Below, one piece after another: positions 895 to 16,513 of a stretch of DNA of 25,735 bases; position 1 is the first letter of the stretch; each line of letters opens with the position of its first letter. The notes below the pieces were generated by a model, which was given only the letters and a program-made list of their open reading frames with translations, made no database searches and was not told where the DNA came from. A program made the translations under genes and the position numbers. The stretch comes from a virus (Duplodnaviria > Heunggongvirae > Uroviricota > Caudoviricetes): the IMG/VR virus record IMGVR_UViG_2534681655_000008; one strand, written 5' to 3'.

Positions 895-1257
895 TTAATG
901 ACCTGCTGCGCGGAGTTTTCCGTCAGGTTCACCGGCAAGAGTCAGTAATTGTCCCTGGTCTTCCTGCAGAATAGTCAGGCGACCACCGCGATTGACATAC
1001 ATCGGCGTTTCGGTGGTGTCTTCTTCGGAAATTTTCCCGCGGTTAGTCGGGCGGACATATGAGAGTTTATGTTTGATTTTCACACGGCTCTCATCAAACG
1101 GTTCGATTTCCAGGTTGAGTGAGACCTTACCTTTGGTTTTCGTGTTCATCACACCGGAAGCGACTTCACTGAGAACTGCGCCGATTTTGGTTTCAAATAC
1201 GCCGCCGTCCAGCTCCCCGATAAATGCCTGTACATCAGTACTGCGTTCGCTAGCCAT
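895..1257 (-). CDS. Hypothetical phage early protein (120 aa), first gene of the leftward operon
   Basis: ATG at 1257 preceded by GAGGAG Shine-Dalgarno; protein-like composition; the 182-aa upstream extension in the ORF track lacks a ribosome-binding site. Confidence 0.6.
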   Translation of the reverse strand: MASERSTDVQAFIGELDGGVFETKIGAVLSEVASGVMNTKTKGKVSLNLEIEPFDESRVKIKHKLSYVRPTNRGKISEEDTTETPMYVNRGGRLTILQEDQGQLLTLAGEPDGKLRAAGH

Positions 1258-1305
1258 TTTGCTGCTCCTCATCATATCGACCCTGCAAGGTCGGTTGGTT
1301 TCTCC

Positions 1306-1394
1306 ACAAAACAGAGAAGAACACCTGCGGTGGCAGCCGCCCGGATGGATTGGGTTATGAGCCCGTCGTCCGGTGATGCTCTTCTCTGTTTTGT
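1306..1394 (-). repeat. Perfect 15-bp inverted repeat ACAAAACAGAGAAGA (1306-1320) / TCTTCTCTGTTTTGT (1380-1394) enclosing a 59-nt GC-rich spacer with internal short stems
   Basis: Direct reverse-complement comparison; lies in the untranslated leader of the leftward operon. Confidence 0.7.
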
Positions 1395-1440
1395 AAAAAG
1401 AGCGGTACCAGCCGGAAGCAAGTGTACAAACTGGTACCGC
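1391..1440 (-). terminator. Terminator-like hairpin: 10-bp perfect stem GCGGTACCAG (1402-1411) / CTGGTACCGC (1431-1440), 19-nt loop, followed on the minus strand by UCUUUUUACAA; overlaps a boxA-like motif CGCTCTTTTTACAA
   Basis: Inverted repeat and U-tract read from sequence; GCUCUUU core resembles the recalled boxA consensus. Confidence 0.45.
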
Positions 1441-1885
1441 CAAAGCAGTGGCTGTTGTGGTGACCGGTGCTGATCTCCGGCTTGCGGTTATTTCAGACTC
1501 TCACGGGCGTTTAATTGCCCCGCCGAACAGCTCTTTTCCGCAATAGCTGCAATGTCTTTCGCGCATCAGCCTGCGCATTCACCACAACGCTGAGAGCACT
1601 TAGCCAGTTACGGCACCACACTTTGTCGCGGTTCCATAAATGCCCTCATCGTTGCACCCTGGTCTCTTCCCAGGCGTCAAACCGAATCGCCACGCTGGTT
1701 AGGCGTCTTATCAGCATCATCATTGACTTGCACATTCCGGCTACCTGGTTTGTTTGCTCGAGCAAGGAGTGGATTGTCCCCTTTAACGTCACCAGACCGC
1801 TAACGACGCATGTGCCATACGCCGTATTACAACCAAATTTTGTTAGTACCTTGTTTGTTGGTCTGGAAAGAAAGATAAAATGAAG

Positions 1886-1923
1886 TTGCGCATTATGCAA
1901 GTGTTTTATTGCGAGATGTGCAA
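1886..1923 (-). promoter_or_regulatory. Putative left operator / leftward promoter: two 15-bp imperfect palindromes TTGCGCATTATGCAA (1886-1900) and TTGCGAGATGTGCAA (1909-1923)
   Basis: Same TTGCG-N5-(A/T)GCAA pattern recurs beside the repressor start at 2692-2706; positioned just downstream of the repressor terminator. Confidence 0.45.
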
Positions 1924-1930
1924 TTTTATG

Positions 1931-1958
1931 GGAAATGAAAAGCCACCTTTGGGTGGCT
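1931..1958 (-). terminator. Rho-independent terminator of the repressor transcript
   Basis: 7-bp stem AGCCACC (1941-1947) / GGTGGCT (1952-1958) with TTTG loop, followed on the minus strand by UUUCAUUUCC; 21 nt downstream of the repressor stop. Confidence 0.65.
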
Positions 1959-1978
1959 AATTGATGAGGAGGTAAGGG

Positions 1979-2671
1979 TTAATTGTGTCGCTTAAGGGTT
2001 TGTGACTGGCTGATTAAGACCTTTCCAAAGACCATAAACCGGTGTTCATTTTCGCTGGTAATTCCCCATTCACGGTAAATCTGGTTATCAGAAATCACCA
2101 GTAGTTTGTCAGGTATCATTTGCAGTCGTTTGACATAAATTTTATCATCAAAACCAAATACATAGATACCATCTCCATCAAACTGATTGATACTGACATC
2201 AACGAAGATGAGATCTCCTGGCTCAATGGTTGGACACATACTGTCCCCACGAACGTTGATAACTTTAATGTGATTGGCTGGTCGTCCGCCAAACATCGAT
2301 ACAGCATTATCAGTTCTGTATTCAATGGCATGAATCACATCAATGACATCACCGCCCTGGATAAGGCCATTTCCCGCACTGGCACTGACATCCAGCATTT
2401 CAATACGGAATACATCCTTCACCTGCGCAACATCCTCACTAATACTGTTTTTACATACAGTATTACTTTTGAAGTCTGAGGTAAAGAGATCAGCAATATC
2501 AACACCTAAACTCCTGGCAATATTACTCAGGGCTTGTTCAGTGAATTGTTTCTGCTTACCTGTTTCCAGGCGCGAGATATTCGCCGCATCCACTCCTATT
2601 GCTTCAGCGAGATCGGCGATTTTCATGTTCTTCGCCTGGCGAAGTTGTCTGACTCGATTTCCTATGTTCAT
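1979..2671 (-). CDS. CI-like prophage repressor (N-terminal HTH_XRE domain, C-terminal S24 LexA-like autopeptidase domain)
   Basis: 230 aa; N-terminus IGNRVRQLRQAKNMKIADLAEAIGVDAANISRLETGK is a typical XRE HTH; C-terminal GDSM serine motif and downstream Lys; divergent from a cro-like gene; no Shine-Dalgarno before the ATG. Confidence 0.85.
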   Translation of the reverse strand: MNIGNRVRQLRQAKNMKIADLAEAIGVDAANISRLETGKQKQFTEQALSNIARSLGVDIADLFTSDFKSNTVCKNSISEDVAQVKDVFRIEMLDVSASAGNGLIQGGDVIDVIHAIEYRTDNAVSMFGGRPANHIKVINVRGDSMCPTIEPGDLIFVDVSINQFDGDGIYVFGFDDKIYVKRLQMIPDKLLVISDNQIYREWGITSENEHRFMVFGKVLISQSQTLKRHN

Positions 2672-2768: not shown

Positions 2769-3029
2769 ATGCAATCACCATTACGAAATGTGCGTAAGGC
2801 GCACGGGCTTACTTTGCAGCATGTTGCTGCGGGCGTTCAGGTTAATCCAGCAACGCTGAGTCGTATTGAGAGACTGGAACAAATTCCATCTATCGATCTT
2901 GCAGAGCGTCTGGCCAATTTTTTTAAGGGAGAAATCAGCGAAATGCAGATTCTCTATCCTGCACGCTTTCAATCTAGTCAAAACCGGAATGAGTTAAAAC
3001 CACAGGAACAGGAGGTAAGCCGTGGGTAA
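2769..3029 (+). CDS. Cro-like HTH regulator (86 aa)
   Basis: GGAGG Shine-Dalgarno 4 nt before ATG 2769; HTH motif LTLQHVAAGVQVNPATLSRIE; divergent from repressor. Confidence 0.75.
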   Translation: MQSPLRNVRKAHGLTLQHVAAGVQVNPATLSRIERLEQIPSIDLAERLANFFKGEISEMQILYPARFQSSQNRNELKPQEQEVSRG

Positions 3030-3566
3030 GCATCACTGGAAAGTGGAAAAACAACCTGAGTGGTACGTGAAAGCTATCAGAAAAACTATCGCGGCATTGC
3101 CAGGTGGTTACGCTGAAGCTGCTGACTGGCTGGATGTAACAGAGAACGCATTATTTAACCGGCCGATGGCGATCAGTTTTTTCCGTTGGGATGGGCAATG
3201 GTTTTACAGCGTGCGGCTGGTACTCACCACATTGCGGATGCTGTCGCACAGTCTGCTGGTGGGGTGTTTGTATCACTTCCTGAAATTGAGGAAGTAGAGA
3301 ACGCCGATATAAACCAGCGCCTGCTGGAAGTCATCGAACAGATCGGGAGTTACTCAAAGCAGATTCGTTCGGCAATCGAAGACGGGGTAGTGGAGCCACA
3401 TGAGCAGACAGCAATTAATGATGAGTTGTATCTGTCGATTTCGAAGCTCCAGGAACATGCGGCACTGGTCTACAAAATTTTCTGCGTTCCAGAAAAGAGT
3501 GACGCCCGCGAGTGTGCAGCTCCGGGCGTCGTGGCGTTTTGTGTCTGTGGAGAAACTAACGCATGA
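3022..3566 (+). pseudogene. Early gene downstream of cro with an apparent -1 frameshift at a T6 tract (3177-3182); function unknown
   Basis: Strong AGGAGGT Shine-Dalgarno before GTG 3022; 5' part protein-like to about 3180 then degenerates, while the other frame opens at 3159 and runs protein-like to a stop overlapping the next start (ATGA at 3563). Confidence 0.45.
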
Positions 3567-3891
3567 ACAGTTTAACGGCAAATAACCGTTGGTCGCAACA
3601 GCTGGTGGTCCGCGTGGCTGAACACCTGTTGTTACGGCATGAATGCAGATTACCAAATCACCTGGCTGTAAGTAACCACAGAGAACTTTACCTGACTGTG
3701 GGGGGCGAGTTGTGCAGGAACTTAACCGCTGGTTTCGTGACGGAAGAGGACTTTATGTTCATGTTATTCGTTGGGAGCCAGAAACACAGCGCGTTATCTA
3801 TCTTCGCAAAGACTACCCGCATGAGTGCTTTAGTCCTTTGTGGAAATTCAGGCGTGATTTTGTTGAGTGTGAAGGACCACCAGCACATTGA
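3563..3891 (+). pseudogene. Hypothetical early protein; start-coupled frame (3563 onward) and a better-looking frame (GTG 3712 to stop 3891) joinable at a G6 tract (3700-3705)
   Basis: ATG 3563 overlaps the upstream stop; the 3712-3891 frame encodes ...LYVHVIRWEPETQRVIYLRKDYPHECFSPLWKF..., more protein-like than the overlapping long-ORF frame. Confidence 0.3.
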
Positions 3892-4168
3892 TTCTGCCAT
3901 TCCGGGACGTTACACTGTTCAGGCACCTTATAAAGCGGGTGCCGGGCGTGGAAACCCGGAATTCACCAAAGCGCACAACCGCGCTCTTGCGGTTTTTTTG
4001 TGTCATGAGCAGCATTACGCCCAAATTATGGTGGGGCGTGCAGGGCCAACTTCGGTTGGGCCGGGTTCTTTGGTGACCGGTATTTCCACCCCTGTACGTC
4101 TCACCACCAATAAGGTCGTGGAAAGCCTTGGTGGTGAGTTATTTAAAATCACCAAAGAGGCTGCCATC

Positions 4169-4714
4169 ATGGCTACGATCCCAACCCTCACTCAACCTGA
4201 AATTGCCATCGTTGATGGTCAGGCTGTTACTTCATCCCTGGCTGTTGCCAACTTCTTCTCCAAACGTCATGACGATGTACTGAAAAAGATCCGCACGCTT
4301 GAATGCTCCGCATCATTCACTGCCCGCAATTTTTCGGTGAGTGATTACACCGATTGCACAGGCCGCAAACTACCTTGCTATCAAATAACCCGCGACGGCT
4401 TTGCGTTTCTTGCTATGGGTTTCACGGGTAAACGTGCTGCCCAGTTCAAAGAGGCATACATCAATGCCTTTAACCAGATGGAGAAACAGCTTTCAAGGCC
4501 CGCTGTACCGAGCGACGTTGCACATAACGCCAGCGTTCTCTGTTCCTACATTTCATCAATTCATCAGGTCTGGCTGCAGCAGCTTTATCCTATGTTGGCA
4601 AAAGCCGAATCTCCGCTGGCTGTTAGCTTATATGACTATATTAATGATGCTTCGGCGCTGGCCTGCCTCATAAATTTGTCGCTGAACCCTTCAGAGGTAA
4701 GGGGGCGCAAATGA
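4169..4714 (+). CDS. Phage regulatory protein Rha (antirepressor-like)
   Basis: ATG 4169 with AAGAGG Shine-Dalgarno; N-terminus MATIPTLTQPEIAIVDGQAVTSSLAVANFFSKRHDDVLKKIRTL...ITRDGFAFLAMGFTGKRAAQFKEAYINAFNQME is typical of the Rha family; the ORF track fuses it to 600 nt of dubious upstream frame. Confidence 0.7.
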   Translation: MATIPTLTQPEIAIVDGQAVTSSLAVANFFSKRHDDVLKKIRTLECSASFTARNFSVSDYTDCTGRKLPCYQITRDGFAFLAMGFTGKRAAQFKEAYINAFNQMEKQLSRPAVPSDVAHNASVLCSYISSIHQVWLQQLYPMLAKAESPLAVSLYDYINDASALACLINLSLNPSEVRGRK

Positions 4715-5752: not shown

Positions 5753-6241
5753 ATGAGTCTTTTGAATGACGTTCAGAAATTCATTGAAGCCCATCCGGGG
5801 TGTACTTCCGGAGACATTGCGGATGCTTTTGCAGGTTACTCACGGCAGCGCGTACTGCAGTCAGCAAGCAAGTTACGTCAGAGTGGGCGTGTGGCTCACC
5901 GTTGTGAAGGGGATACACGCAGACATTTCCCGCGCCTGACTGAGAGAGCGCAGGAGCCGGAACCACAACCAGTTCGTGAAACCAGACCTGTGCGCAATTT
6001 CTATGTCGGCACTAACGATCCCCGGGTGATTTTGTGCCTGACCCGCCAGGCTGAAGAACTGGAGTCAAGAGGCTTATACCGTCGTGCTGCAACCGTGTGG
6101 ATGGCGGCATTCCGTGAAAGCCACTCCCAGCCAGAACGAAACAATTTTCTGGCGCGTCGTGAGCGGTGCTTACGGAAAAGCAGCAAGCGCGCTGCATCGG
6201 GTGAAGAGTGGTATCTGTCAGGGAATTACGTGGGGGCTTAA
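5753..6241 (+). CDS. PerC-family-like transcriptional regulator (putative)
   Basis: C-terminal motif LTRQAEELESRGLYRRAATVWMAAF resembles the recalled PerC/Pch signature; ATG 5753 after a GGGGG ribosome-binding site. Confidence 0.4.
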   Translation: MSLLNDVQKFIEAHPGCTSGDIADAFAGYSRQRVLQSASKLRQSGRVAHRCEGDTRRHFPRLTERAQEPEPQPVRETRPVRNFYVGTNDPRVILCLTRQAEELESRGLYRRAATVWMAAFRESHSQPERNNFLARRERCLRKSSKRAASGEEWYLSGNYVGA

Positions 6242-9417: not shown

Positions 9418-9434
9418 TTTTGTGGAGAAAGTTG

Positions 9435-9800
9435 ATGCGTGATATTCAAATGGTTCTTGAACGTTGGGGGGCATGGGTGGCAAATAATCACGAGGATGTC
9501 ACCTGGTCGTCTATTGCTGCAGGATTTAAAGGACTAATCCCTTCAAAAGTAAAATCCCGCCCGCAATGTTGTGACGATGACGCGATGATCATTTGTGGGT
9601 GCATGGCTCGCCTGAAAAAGAACAACAGCGATTTGCACGATTTATTAGTGGATTATTATGTAGGTGGTATGACGTTTATGGCGCTTGCCCGTAAACATGG
9701 GCGTTCTGATTGCTGGGTTGGGCGTTTATTGCAAAAGGCTGAAGGTGTAGTTGATGGCATGTTAATGATGTTAGAAATTGAGCTAGAGATGGATCGTTAG
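9435..9800 (+). CDS. Q: Late-gene antiterminator Q (phage 82 / 21-type)
   Basis: [35 protein letters not shown]...[19 protein letters not shown] matches recalled 82-type Q proteins; GGAG Shine-Dalgarno before ATG 9435. Confidence 0.8.
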
Positions 9801-9842
9801 AAGACCTCTTATTGAGGGGGTAATTGAATCAGTTTAATGTGT

Positions 9843-9864
9843 GGGGAGTCGATTTATTCTCCCC
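9843..9864. other. Hairpin GGGGAG-N10-CTCCCC between Q and the convergent lipoprotein gene, followed on the + strand by an AT-rich run
   Basis: Perfect 6-bp GC stem read from sequence; could terminate either convergent transcript. Confidence 0.4.
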
Positions 9865-9883
9865 ATTTATTTAATTAATTTAC

Positions 9884-10330
9884 TTAAGGTTTTAATTCAT
9901 CAAGACGTTGTTGGATAGTGTTTTTGCTTGCGTTGTCTGTTATAGCCATTTGTTGTACTTGCCCCATTGCCATTTGAGTTTCCATCCACATATCGGCCCA
10001 CACTTTTGTATCGTTATTAACTTGAGCGATAGTAAATCTGACTTTTGATACCGGGGTTGTTGAATAGGCATTTCCGATTAACATTTGTCCAAAAACAGCA
10101 GAGCCGCCTTCCAGTTCTTTACCACATATAACACTGCTGTTATCCGCGTTGTAAATTATCAACCCTCTACTATTGCAGTAATTCACAAGGGCATCTTTGA
10201 CTTTATCTTTTGTCGTATTTTGATAAACCCCCTCAGGTTTTCCTGATTGAGTTTTCTTTATCAATGGTACGGAAGAAGTACAACCTGAAATGATAGTTGC
10301 GCTAAGTAATAGTACAGTCATTTTATTCAT
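9884..10330 (-). CDS. Lipoprotein of unknown function (148 aa), AT-rich moron on the opposite strand
   Basis: Signal peptide MNKMTVLLLSATIISGC with lipobox-like ISGC; visibly AT-rich relative to flanking phage genes; own promoter-like and Shine-Dalgarno-like sequences upstream. Confidence 0.65.
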   Translation of the reverse strand: MNKMTVLLLSATIISGCTSSVPLIKKTQSGKPEGVYQNTTKDKVKDALVNYCNSRGLIIYNADNSSVICGKELEGGSAVFGQMLIGNAYSTTPVSKVRFTIAQVNNDTKVWADMWMETQMAMGQVQQMAITDNASKNTIQQRLDELKP

Positions 10331-10460
10331 GTTTCTTATCCATTGTTAAGGGTATACCCACACAATTATTTTTATTGGAGATGAATAATCAACCGTTTAC
10401 AATCGTAAAAAATCAAATATGCTGTTAAGAGTGGTTACTTCGCCACACAACTTAAACCCG

Positions 10461-10479
10461 CCGCTGAGCGGTTTTTTTT
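10461..10479 (+). terminator. Weak terminator-like hairpin CCGC-TGA-GCGG followed by T8
   Basis: Short stem and T-run read from sequence; upstream of the tRNA promoter. Confidence 0.35.
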
Positions 10480-10560
10480 GTACCTGTAAACTTGGTGCAG
10501 TACAGTAAACACGCTGGTGGACAAGTGAAAAACAGCATTTAATCAGGCCTTCTGAAGATA

Positions 10561-10589
10561 TTGCAGTATTAATTCTGTAACGTTATTAT
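10561..10589 (+). promoter_or_regulatory. Sigma70-like promoter for the tRNA cluster (candidate late promoter): -35 TTGCAG (10561-10566), 17-bp spacer, -10 TATTAT (10584-10589), GC-rich discriminator
   Basis: Hexamers and spacing read from sequence; GCGCGC discriminator immediately before tRNA +1 is typical of stable-RNA promoters. Confidence 0.45.
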
Positions 10590-10598
10590 TCTGCGCGC

Positions 10599-10674
10599 GG
10601 CCCTTTAGCTCAGTGGTGAGAGCGAGCGACTCATAATCGCCAGGTCGCTGGTTCAAATCCAGCAAGGGCCACCA
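10599..10674 (+). tRNA. tRNA with CAU anticodon, tRNA-Ile2 (lysidine type)-like
   Basis: Full cloverleaf folded by hand (7-bp acceptor, D stem GCTC/GAGC, anticodon stem, T stem GCTGG/CCAGC, encoded CCA); near-identical to recalled E. coli ileX. Confidence 0.8.
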
Positions 10675-10675
10675 A

Positions 10676-10752
10676 CTGCCACTAGCTCATCAGGAAAGAG
10701 CGTCAACCCTTTAAGTTGAGAGTGCGAGGTTCGAGTCCCCGGTGGCGGTCCA
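10676..10752 (+). tRNA. Atypical tRNA-like gene, anticodon loop CCUUUAA (nominal anticodon UUU)
   Basis: Cloverleaf folds (acceptor CTGCCAC/GTGGCGG with one G-U, D stem GCTC/GAGC, anticodon stem TCAAC/GTTGA, T loop TTCGAGT, CCA) but C at position 33, C1-G72 and one T-stem mismatch are unusual. Confidence 0.5.
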
Positions 10753-10754
10753 GT

Positions 10755-10830
<76 letters not shown>

Positions 10831-10833
10831 TGT

Positions 10834-10908
<75 letters not shown>

Positions 10909-14411: not shown

Positions 14412-16513
14412 TGCTGAATCAGGAAACCGCAAAGGCAGCACGAACCGATTCAGGTTATATCCTTCGCGCACCGAGACGAATGCGGGTTGCTGATGCCGTT
14501 GCTCAGTATATGCGAGTGCCCATGGGGGCCGGGAACTCAGTCCCGTGGGATCCGCTGGTGGCACCGTATGTTCTTGAGCCGATGAACTGCCTGGCCTCGC
14601 GTGAATACGACGCAGTGATATTTGTTGGTCCGGCACGAACCGGCAAGACTATCGGCCTGATTGACGGCTGGGTGATTTACAACGTGATTTGCGATCCTGC
14701 GGATATGCTGATCATTCAGATGACGGAGGAAAAAGCCCGCGAACACTCCAAAAAACGACTTGCCAGAACGTTTCGCGTCAGCCCGGAAGTGGTCAGTCGC
14801 CTGAGTCCGAACAAAAATGACAACAACGTTTATGACAGAACATTCCTTGCTGGCAACTACCTGAAAATCGGCTGGCCGTCAGTCAATATCATGTCCTCAT
14901 CAGATTATAAATGCGTGGCGCTGACGGATTATGACCGTTTTCCGGAAGATATTGATGGCGAGGGGGATGCCTTCTCTCTTGCCTCAAAACGTACCACCAC
15001 ATTTATGTCCAGTGGTATGACGCTGGTGGAGAGTTCCCCCGGCAGGGATGTGAAGGATGTGAAATGGCGACGGACTTCACCGCATGAGGCTCCACCAACC
15101 ACGGGGATACTGTCGCTCTATAACCGTGGCGATCGCCGTCGCTGGTACTGGCCCTGTCCACACTGTGGTGAGTATTTTCAGCCCTGCGGCGATGTGGTTG
15201 CTGGTTTCCGTGATATTGCCGATCCCGTGCTGGCAAGTGAGGCGGCTTATATTCAGTGTCCTTCCTGTTCAGGACGGATTATGCCTGAACAAAAACGTGA
15301 GCTGAACGGACGTGGGGTCTGGTTGCGGGATGGTGAATCCATCAATGCGGATGGCAGTCGTTATGGTGATCCCCGACGCTCACGTATTGCGTCATTCTGG
15401 ATGGAGGGTCCGGCAGCTGCTTACCAGACACTCTCGCAACTCGTTTACAAACTGCTTACTGCAGAACAGGAATACGAGACAACCGGAAGTGAAGAAACAC
15501 TCAAGACGGTTATCAATACCGACTGGGGATTACCTTATCTTCCCCGTGCCAGCATGGAGCAACGAAAAAGTGAACTGCTTGAGCAGCGGGCAGAGCCAGT
15601 TCCTTCCCGCAGTGTGCCGGATGGCGTTAATTTCCTGGTGGCGACAGTTGATGTGCAGGCGGGACGTCATCGCCGTTTTGTGGTTCAGGTAACGGGCTAT
15701 GGCAGCCGTGGCGAACGCTGGATTATTGATCGTTACAACATCACGCAGTCATTGCGCGGTGACAGCGACGGGGAGAGCCAGCGAATTGATCCGGCCAGCT
15801 ATCCGGAAGACTGGGATGTCCTGCTGACGGATGTTTTTCATAAAAGCTGGCCGCTGGCCTCCGATCCTTCTCAACAAATGCGACTGATGGCAATGGCGGT
15901 GGACTCCGGCGGTGAAGACGGGGTCACCGATAATGCCTATAAATTCTGGCGTCGTTGCCGTCGTGATGGCCTTGGTAAACGTATTTACCTGTTTAAGGGC
16001 GACAGCATCCGGCGCGCAAAACTGATCACCCGTACATTCCCTGATAACACCGGACGAACGGGCCGACGGGCGCAGGCCGCAGGTGATGTGCCGCTCTGGC
16101 TTCTTCAGACGGATGCCCTGAAAGACCGGGTGAATAACGCGTTATGGCGTGACTCGCCAGGTCCCGGCTATGTGCATTTCCCTGACTGGCTGGGGAGCTG
16201 GTTTTACGACGAACTGACGTATGAAGAGCGGAGTAGTGACGGGAAATGGAGTAAGCCGGGTCGCGGTGCCAACGAAGCTTTTGACCTGATGGTGTATGCC
16301 GAGGCTCTGGTCATTCTGCATGGATACGAAAAGATCCGCTGGCCGGATGCACCGGAGTGGGCGAGCCGGGAAACCTGGCTGGAGTGTGTCCCGGACAGTA
16401 CCGAACCGTCACCCTCACCGGAACCGGTATCCACGCCTGTTAAAAAACAAAAACGGAAGAAAACAGTAACTGACGATGTTAACCCCTGGCTGACTTCCGG
16501 AGGATGGTTATGA
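14411..16513 (+). CDS. Terminase large subunit (lambda gpA-like)
   Basis: 700 aa; Walker A-like VGPARTGKT; CPHCGEYF...CPSCSG segment parallels lambda gpA CPHCGEEQ... Confidence 0.9.
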   Translation: MLNQETAKAARTDSGYILRAPRRMRVADAVAQYMRVPMGAGNSVPWDPLVAPYVLEPMNCLASREYDAVIFVGPARTGKTIGLIDGWVIYNVICDPADMLIIQMTEEKAREHSKKRLARTFRVSPEVVSRLSPNKNDNNVYDRTFLAGNYLKIGWPSVNIMSSSDYKCVALTDYDRFPEDIDGEGDAFSLASKRTTTFMSSGMTLVESSPGRDVKDVKWRRTSPHEAPPTTGILSLYNRGDRRRWYWPCPHCGEYFQPCGDVVAGFRDIADPVLASEAAYIQCPSCSGRIMPEQKRELNGRGVWLRDGESINADGSRYGDPRRSRIASFWMEGPAAAYQTLSQLVYKLLTAEQEYETTGSEETLKTVINTDWGLPYLPRASMEQRKSELLEQRAEPVPSRSVPDGVNFLVATVDVQAGRHRRFVVQVTGYGSRGERWIIDRYNITQSLRGDSDGESQRIDPASYPEDWDVLLTDVFHKSWPLASDPSQQMRLMAMAVDSGGEDGVTDNAYKFWRRCRRDGLGKRIYLFKGDSIRRAKLITRTFPDNTGRTGRRAQAAGDVPLWLLQTDALKDRVNNALWRDSPGPGYVHFPDWLGSWFYDELTYEERSSDGKWSKPGRGANEAFDLMVYAEALVILHGYEKIRWPDAPEWASRETWLECVPDSTEPSPSPEPVSTPVKKQKRKKTVTDDVNPWLTSGGWL

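Follow-up and report, generated by a model that had tools for sequence, protein, structure and literature searches.

A covarying three-way-junction RNA with a tRNA-like tip behind a predicted terminator in the early-left leader of lambdoid prophages

The leader in front of the first leftward gene of a lambdoid prophage (IMG/VR record IMGVR_UViG_2534681655_000008; "the window" denotes this whole stretch of 25,735 nucleotides) contains an 89-nt element, 1394→1306 on the minus strand, that folds as a three-way-junction RNA. An original prediction made from the letters of this DNA had reported here a terminator-like hairpin with a boxA-like motif and a perfect 15-bp inverted repeat, and had suggested a nut- or put-like antitermination module or, alternatively, a recombination site or miniature inverted-repeat element. 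On comparative sequence evidence, the inverted repeat is the closing helix of a structured RNA, all three variable helices of which covary. We establish here the structure and strand of this RNA, its conservation, covariation and genomic contexts, and the conserved position of the terminator that precedes it. As the best explanation of these observations we propose, with about even confidence in the account as a whole, that leftward transcription is attenuated at the terminator and that any RNA reading through it is cleaved at the closing helix to release a small tRNA-mimic RNA.

A three-way junction and the terminator that precedes it

The inverted repeat is present as predicted, with arms at 1306-1330 and 1370-1394 that match over 25 nt at 84% and are perfect over the outer 15 bp. 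By our own arithmetic, a perfect 15-bp inverted repeat within ~100 nt is expected ~0.002 times per 25.7 kb; the repeat is therefore not a chance occurrence. Folding of the minus strand, which the original prediction had recommended, gave a three-way junction for 1394→1306 with an energy of −45.5 kcal/mol (z = −7.3 vs shuffles). Helix P1 (1375-1394/1306-1325) comprises 20 bp, of which the outer 15 are the inverted repeat, and lengthens to 25 bp when wobble pairs to the U-tract are counted. It encloses a long irregular hairpin and a short one. In the former, helix PA (1367-1373/1341-1347) is followed by an internal loop and the tip GGG-CUCAUAA-CCC (1352-1364); the latter, PB, reads GCGG-CUGCCA-CCGC (1327-1340). 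All of these features lie on the minus strand.

Homologues strongly support this fold. A covariance model (R1) was derived from a seed alignment (A3), and copies were gathered from annotated phages and viral contigs as well as from E. coli genomes and a collection with a single genome for each species. Among 31 distinct copies from early-left (pL) leaders, drawn from Escherichia, Salmonella-type, Citrobacter, Enterobacter, Kosakonia, Trabulsiella, Buttiauxella and Mixta sequences, 94.8% of the cells are paired and 16 of the 34 pairs change on both sides. None of 500 shuffles reached these values, and controls with slid partners were 41-54% paired. A divergent set from Klebsiella, Pantoea, Yersinia and phage P1 was 93.9% paired, versus 72% in shuffles, with changes on both sides in 30 of the 34 pairs. 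G:U cells outnumber A.C cells (66 vs 33, with 23 of the A.C cells at one position), indicating that the RNA is read on the minus strand, in the sense of leftward transcription. The stretch GACGGG-CUCAUAA-CCCAAUCC is nearly invariant; P1, PB and the outer portion of PA show free covariation.

The tip, GGGCUCAUAACCC, has the same sequence as the core of the anticodon stem-loop in the initiator tRNA (tRNA-fMet). The identity does not extend to every copy: the loop is UUCAUAU or GUCAUAU in phage P1, CCCAUAA in Buttiauxella and UUAAUAA in e14, and the Klebsiella copies close it with a G:U pair. The common denominator is a loop of 7 nt in which CAU stands between U33-like and A37-like positions. Mimicry of the initiator tRNA specifically was also considered; it was weakened by the loop and closing-pair variants of P1, Klebsiella and e14, and by the acceptor ends of the Klebsiella copies, which are nearer to tRNA-Ile2. 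A search of the whole window with Rfam 15 at gathering thresholds returned no family matching the element, and searches at E-values up to 10 of positions 1150-2050, of the swi2 element and of a Klebsiella copy gave nothing relevant. Likewise, no family of the bacterial Y-RNA type (YrlA-type tRNA mimics) was among the Rfam matches at E-values up to 10 for the Klebsiella copy or for the elements of the window and swi2.

Directly 5′ of the element is the 10-bp perfect hairpin of the original prediction (arms 1402-1411 and 1431-1440, 10 nt, 100% complementary). On the minus strand it extends to 13 pairs (1429-1441/1401-1413), of which the 10 are the perfect G+C-rich ones, and the loop and stem are followed by CUUUUU (1395-1400), forming a predicted intrinsic terminator at 1441→1395. 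The hairpin has an energy of −21.2 kcal/mol (z = −4.2 vs shuffles). Taken alone, a bare 10-bp inverted repeat would not be unusual; it is the U-tract and the positional conservation that make this hairpin meaningful. The U-run abuts the first base of the three-way-junction element in 130 of the 137 copies compared, and the stems in front of it comprise at least eight different, unrelated sequences, such as GGCGGUACC...GGUACCGCC, GGCGGCGUC...GACGCCGC, GGCGGUUAUCC...GGAUAACCGCC and GCCCAUC...GGUGGGC. A signal that is kept while the hairpin sequence changes is what selection on termination would be expected to produce. The claim of a terminator-like hairpin on the leftward strand, between the repressor-controlled region and the first leftward gene, thus holds, with a stem, a U-tract and a position kept in relatives, and the sequence predicts that 1401-1441 with its U-tract is an ordinary intrinsic terminator.

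The boxA-like string reported at the same place, CGCUCUUUUUACAA, is also present, but it consists of the last bases of the terminator stem, the U-tract and the first bases of the next helix. The boxA core GCUCUUU appears in only 4 of 32 distinct junction types, all four of them near-identical E. coli variants. The second commonest junction variant reads GUCCUUUUU, another type reads GCCCUUUUU, and the Salmonella and Enterobacter types read GCA(C/U)UUUUUU. The resemblance to boxA, as judged from these junctions, is a by-product of the terminator stem and U-tract.

On its 3′ side the element is followed by a conserved GGAGAAAC (1298-1305) and by a small hairpin on the minus strand, CGACCU-UGCA-GGGUCG (1278-1293; −8.5 kcal/mol, z = −2.5), which lies between the element and the ribosome-binding site. 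Relatives have a hairpin of other sequence at the same place, for example GGCGGUGGCAGCCGCC, and keep GGAGAA.

Genomic contexts and the long-stem family

The element occurs in phages of at least 12 enterobacterial genera and in phage P1, and a homologue of 1290-1450 is present in 2811 of 5426 complete E. coli genomes. In pL leaders the order is terminator, element, GGAGAA, hairpin and yfdP ribosome-binding site, with the element always 45-70 nt 5′ of the first gene. This context is found in Escherichia and Shigella (SfV, SfII, SfIV, mEp460, cdtI and Stx2 phages) and also in Salmonella (ST64B), Citrobacter (phiNP), Enterobacter, Kosakonia, Trabulsiella, Buttiauxella and Mixta. In E. coli K-12, the copy of prophage e14 sits before xisE and is annotated as the coding sequence ymfH. 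This annotation (L133 2480-2791) spans, in sense orientation, the end of a tRNA-derived domain described below (domain X), an intrinsic terminator and the e14 three-way-junction copy (2517-2605); ymfH is probably not a protein gene.

In Klebsiella lambdoid phages, the core of the element is the last unit of tRNA arrays located between Q and the lysis genes. It begins 6 nt after the CCA of the last tRNA, with the spacer GAUAAU, and is followed by the terminator after the array. Here the core has a 6-7-bp acceptor-like stem, GGCCUG/CAGGCC, with U at position −1 and an A/G-CCA end of its own. Among 16 distinct Klebsiella-type copies, 15 finish in A/G-CCA; the window copy has a 20-bp stem without CCA. 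Phage P1 gave four R1 matches on the sense strand of the ban operon, among tRNA genes. The long-stem elements of P1 (L002 3611-3691, 3871-3968, 4105-4193 and 4550-4632) include two with a CAU anticodon-arm mimic and one with a canonical T-arm, and they overlap upl and plp, open reading frames (ORFs) annotated on the opposite strand that may be spurious. The core lies within such conserved long stems both in late leaders and in this operon. Both types of context occur together in one viral contig (L103), with a pL-leader copy (96 bits) and a tRNA-array copy (40 bits) at 6047-6137 and 14600-14695.

A pattern scan of genome contigs covered 596 Gb, for which ~280 chance matches were estimated, and most of its matches are chance; filtering with R1 left ~20 true copies, nearly all from Enterobacterales. 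Outside this order, R1 matched "Chryseobacterium sp. 18061" (L180, 87.6 bits), whose copy looks enterobacterial and is possibly contamination, and an Acidobacteriaceae metagenome-assembled genome (L210, 36.4 bits).

A conserved long stem, of which helix P1 in the window copy is one variant, has the 5′ strand ..ACAACAGGUAAGAGCAUU and the 3′ strand AGUGCUCUUUCCGUUGUGG.., with a conserved A bulge and a U.U mismatch. A scan with the 3′ strand alone matched at least 120 viral contigs. Among the matches listed, 121 of 125 copies have a 5′ partner within 170 nt, and these 121 partnered stems hold 85 different inserts of 34-137 nt, some with a canonical T-arm, some with a CAU anticodon-arm mimic and most with neither. 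Where tRNA genes are present, they adjoin the long stems and share their orientation (21/21). Recognisable neighbours put most long-stem copies in the interval from Q to the lysis genes and a few in that from cI to yfdP, always in the sense of transcription.

The window leader holds a second member of this family, LS#2 (1656→1582, minus strand; the three-way junction being LS#1), with the 5′ strand GCAACGAUGAGGGCAUU, the 3′ strand AAGUGCUCUCAGCGUUGU and an insert of ~40 nt. Its fold has an energy of −33.4 kcal/mol (z = −4.6), and its 3′ strand is a widely conserved "40-nt motif" found in 182 phage records. Between LS#2 and the terminator lies a tRNA-derived, cloverleaf-like domain X (1600→1452, minus strand). 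Its closing stem pairs GUUGUGGUGA with UCACCACAAC (1579-1588/1454-1463), and its hairpins are GCGCAGGCUGAUGCGC at the D-arm position and CCGG-AGAUCAGCA-CCGG at the T-arm position. The window copy of domain X alone did not fold better than shuffles (z = −0.9). The domain is common to the HK620 late leader (between qut and tQ), swi2 (next to tRNA-Met) and e14, and occurs in 182 phage records overall. In the viral contigs L369 and L338, homologous units have retained a D-arm of canonical form, the T-arm GCCGGUUCAAAUCCGGC and an ACCA terminus, which identifies domain X as a tRNA derivative. These two units (~150-265 of the extracts) directly follow a long-stem element, have a 7-bp acceptor stem and are not called by ARAGORN; in their 57-nt middle, a covarying stem caps a conserved 11-nt loop, UUGCCAUUGCU.

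Within 1452-1656, the 3′ strand of LS#2 (..CGUUGUGG) draws on the same bases as the closing stem of domain X does for its 5′ strand (GUUGUGGUGA). Because these bases are shared, the two structures are partly mutually exclusive, and they could constitute a conformational switch just 5′ of the terminator. Positions 1582-1838 are homologous to sequence adjoining tRNA-Ile in P1 and a tRNA in phiV10. With LS#2, domain X and 1582-1838 as its parts, the leader looks like a transplanted, heavily derived tRNA-region module.

The prophage and its early-left leader

The window is a lambdoid prophage of the SfV/mEp460/cdtI type. A gene for a cI-like repressor (1979-2671, minus strand; HTH and Peptidase_S24 by Pfam) is followed by a cro-like gene on the plus strand (2769-3029) and then by a CII-like gene. 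The operator-like pattern TTGCGN6GCAA has only four exact matches across the window, three of which flank the repressor gene: two at 1886-1900 and 1909-1923, and a third at 2692-2706, between cI and cro. We read these sites as putative operators. Their placement, together with synteny with e14, would put the leftward early promoter at 1886-1923, although a promoter scan showed no strong sigma-70 consensus there. A terminator scan also found a hairpin with a T-run just 3′ of the cI-like gene (1941-1958, minus strand).

The first leftward gene is yfdP-like (895-1270 including the Shine-Dalgarno sequence; 120 aa) and starts at 1257 on the minus strand, behind the Shine-Dalgarno sequence GAGGAG (1265-1270); its gene order is matched in mEp460, LLS and phiNP. 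The leader had been given as 450 nt, but ~630 nt lie untranslated between the operator-like sites (1886-1923) and the start codon at 1257. Next after the yfdP-like gene is a DUF2303 (yfdQ-like) gene interrupted by an insertion sequence. A C-terminal transposase fragment (1-392) abuts and truncates this gene (317-829), which matches only profile positions 2-138 of 269; the insertion sequence looks IS3-family-like by eye only.

In the leader, 29 variable positions fall 11/9/9 over the codon phases, giving no periodicity that would point to coding, in a low-powered test on available homologues that are 98-99% identical. Two annotated genes of mEp460, gp36 and gp37 (L001 3073-3216 and 3258-3626), correspond to ~1330-1473 and ~1515-1883 of the window on the plus strand, opposite the structured leader. 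They are probably not genes, because the variable positions show no codon periodicity. No duplicates of the leader sequence were found elsewhere within the window, the tRNA region included.

Farther to the right, Rfam identifies an isrK/C4 antisense pair (3923-4111), consisting of the Hfq-binding RNA isrK (3923-3999) and C4 (4024-4111). Both RNAs lie within a long ORF (3563-4714); the real antirepressor gene therefore probably starts 3′ of them, as in ant control of the P1/P7 type. The Q antiterminator gene (Phage_antitermQ, 9420-9800) is followed by four tRNA genes (10599-10905), the first of which has a CAU anticodon and is ileZ-like. No long-stem element was detected in this late region (9420-10905), where related phages carry such elements.

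A proposed mechanism and its alternatives

We propose that the terminator (1441→1395) would end a non-coding leader RNA of ~480-490 nt, transcribed from a repressor-controlled promoter and built from the tRNA-derived modules LS#2 and domain X. Termination would limit transcription into yfdP, yfdQ and, further on, the recombination and excision genes, and the three-way-junction element would be present only on read-through RNA. From this RNA the core would be excised as a small, stable tRNA-mimic RNA. In the window copy, RNase III would cleave the 20-bp duplex of helix P1 and thereby also create a new 5′ end for the yfdP mRNA; the tRNA-array copies would be cut by tRNA-processing enzymes. We infer excision because the core occurs in two contexts that would allow release, with a tRNA-type end in the arrays and with a duplex of at least 20 bp here and in phage P1. 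Duplexes of ~20 bp or more are the length class of RNase III substrates, and helix P1, at 20 bp (25 bp with wobble pairs), is a near-continuous duplex of that class. The efficiency of termination, RNase III cleavage, release of the small RNA and its function in trans are all predictions of this account.

Several points weigh against it. The account does not explain how RNA polymerase gets past the terminator. Many homologues were retrieved with tip-motif patterns, so that the invariance of the tip is partly a matter of ascertainment, and the fitting of alignments A5 and A6 to the model biases them towards the structure. Template switching at the DNA level could explain part of the covariation of helix P1, but not that of PA and PB or the G:U asymmetry. 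The e14 copy in K-12 has UUAAUAA instead of CUCAUAA. Finally, the Rfam tRNA model (RF00005) called no tRNA in window positions 1200-2000 or in the Klebsiella copy at E-values up to 10, and ARAGORN found no credible tRNA in any copy, whether run in normal, relaxed or mitochondrial mode.

The element might instead stay on the read-through mRNA as a cis-acting 5′ structure, protecting the yfdP-yfdQ...xis/int message or tuning translation of the first gene, with the tip as a leftover. Such a role fits the constant distance of the pL copies from the first gene (45-70 nt) and the GGAGAA and hairpin that follow before the ribosome-binding site, and in the phiNP type the loop GCUCAUA is complementary to UAUGAGC at the start codon. 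However, the core is also found in places with no gene start behind it: within the ban operon of P1, and at the ends of tRNA arrays, where a terminator comes next. The window copy lacks a downstream complement of at least 7 nt, and the tip is conserved far beyond the needs of a mere stabiliser. We consider this alternative unlikely.

Somewhat less likely still is a bolder reading, in which the long stems would be a phage "display scaffold", excised from leaders and releasing short RNAs whose inserts imitate pieces of host tRNAs. The window copy would then mimic a CAU-anticodon arm (initiator or Ile2 type) and act in trans as a decoy or competitor. Candidate partners include an initiator-tRNA-cleaving toxin of the VapC/MvpT type, TilS, MetRS and the ribosomal P site. 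If this were true, the hypervariability of the inserts (85 kinds among the 121 listed copies) would reflect an arms race with host defences that target tRNAs.

Three further explanations appear improbable, to a similar degree. The first is an element that works as DNA, namely a recombination site, a cruciform or the ends of a miniature transposon, with the long stems as boundaries for cassette exchange. Mosaic breakpoints do fall at module edges (homology with SfV, SfII and SfIV stops at ~1442, and that with ST64B covers 1294-1400 only), the long stems are conserved around hypervariable inserts, and several copies can occur in one genome, as the four in P1 illustrate. But the arms of the repeat covary rather than being fixed, PA and PB covary too, the G:U asymmetry favours one strand, and no recombinase is associated with the copies. 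The recombination-site reading of the inverted repeat is therefore disfavoured by the covariation of P1, PA and PB and by G:U pairs that fit one strand only. As for a miniature inverted-repeat element, the long stem does recur in many phage contexts, but its covariation, its orientation, which always follows transcription, and the lack of target duplications at the junctions speak against that part of the proposal.

The second is an immunity-type antisense RNA like C4 of P1/P7 or CI of P4, whose loops would pair with targets in the same operon and whose inserts would be specificity determinants. The element shares with the Rfam consensus of C4 a long closing stem around two hairpins, is encoded in a leader and keeps its scaffold while its inserts are hypervariable, and a genuine C4/isrK pair exists elsewhere in the window. 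The C4 model (RF01695, clan CL00128), however, matches 4024-4111 and not 1306-1394, even at E-values up to 10. The window contains no complement of at least 7 nt within 140 nt downstream of the element or of at least 8 nt within 450 nt upstream, and complementary stretches in the flanks of relatives are sporadic, so that the window and most relatives lack consistent targets. The tip, moreover, is conserved across genera, not diversified.

The third is a functionless relic, a decayed gene for a tRNA with a CAU anticodon (ileZ/tRNA-Ile2 or tRNA-Met type) among the debris of a tRNA region. The leader is indeed a patchwork of sequences that flank tRNA genes elsewhere, the e14 loop is mutated, and the Klebsiella copies share GGCC...GGCC-ACCA ends and CUCAUAAUC with tRNA-Ile2-type genes (49-50/70 identities, gapped). 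Yet a decaying pseudogene would lose pairing, and here compensatory changes keep a three-way junction that is not a tRNA fold across at least 12 genera; the frequency of the element among complete E. coli genomes also argues against decay.

Least probable of all, with four tested features against it, is the nut- or put-like antitermination module of the original prediction, in which the boxA-like motif and the structures would modify RNA polymerase to read through early-left terminators: CGCUCUUUUUACAA resembles boxA, and a terminator stands before all early-left genes with read-through otherwise unexplained, but the boxA core is not conserved and is embedded in the terminator stem and U-tract, the string is followed by the 20-bp helix of the three-way junction and not by a boxB-type hairpin (short stem with a purine-rich pentaloop), and the element, lying downstream of the terminator, cannot suppress it. 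Domain X, which does lie 5′ of the terminator, also precedes the annotated late terminator tQ of HK620, where termination must work without Q. The statement that no N-like Arg-rich gene is apparent was borne out: the leader holds no candidate ORF, and Pfam gives only Phage_antitermQ at 9420-9800, in a search covering the window, which is not the whole prophage. The HK022 comparison that had been suggested gave no support, since pL-putL, located by a published primer, shares only chance matches of ≤9 nt with the leader. For the put RNA itself, binding to the zinc-binding domain of the RNA polymerase β′ subunit is described as a requirement (PMC9378689).

Relation to known systems

Searches of the literature, both by subject and with literal sequence strings, turned up no account of the element, and the tRNA-mimic three-way junction and its long-stem scaffold family appear to be undescribed. 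The element nonetheless belongs to a known broad kind, the tRNA-like, processed, leader-encoded phage RNAs. It links phage tRNA arrays with the untranslated leaders of early-left and late operons, which are usually treated separately, and suggests that such leaders carry processed tRNA-mimic RNAs. Should these RNAs work in trans, they would be relevant to the old question of why tRNA genes and tRNA-like sequences are found in phage genomes, and also to how phages counter defences aimed at tRNAs. In addition, the element flags several probably mis-annotated ORFs (ymfH, upl and plp of P1, and gp36 and gp37 of mEp460) and raises a regulatory question: how lambdoid phages that lack N pass a strong terminator placed before all early-left genes.

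Among known systems, the hairpin at 1401-1441 with its CUUUUU fits the class of intrinsic terminators fully and without difference. The element differs from miniature inverted-repeat transposable elements in its covarying arms, in the lack of duplications at its junctions and in an orientation that follows transcription. HK022 put and lambda nut are likewise structured RNAs in lambdoid early leaders, where they are signals that govern terminator read-through; the element differs in having no sequence similarity to them, a boxA-like string that is not conserved, a position after the terminator and no N-like protein found. In the lambda N leader, an RNase III hairpin lies between nutL and the start of N, and cleavage there trims the early-left mRNA. 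The lambda hairpin is likewise a long helix, of about two turns or more and thus of a length suited to RNase III, in the pL leader shortly 5′ of the first early-left gene, but it has neither a tRNA-like insert nor a preceding terminator and works with nutL and N; cleavage of the element described here is predicted only.

The C4 RNA of P1/P7 (RF01695) and the CI RNA of P4 are phage regulatory, leader-encoded small RNAs freed by tRNA-processing enzymes, in which they resemble the proposed product, and C4 has the same plan of a long closing stem with two internal hairpins. Unlike them, the element has no match to the C4 model and no targets in its flanks, and its tip is conserved rather than specific to an immunity type. 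The prophage Pas small RNAs (Storz lab) come from the Q-to-lysis region and adjoin TerB-type genes. As compared with the CAU tRNAs (tRNA-fMet, tRNA-Met and tRNA-Ile2/ileZ), the element lacks a D-arm and a T-loop motif, its "anticodon arm" measures 33 nt and contains an internal loop, and the window copy has a 20-bp helix without CCA in place of an acceptor-like stem. It shares with these tRNAs the tip, which is the tRNA-fMet anticodon core, and, in the Klebsiella copies, U(−1), an acceptor-like stem, an A/G discriminator and CCA.

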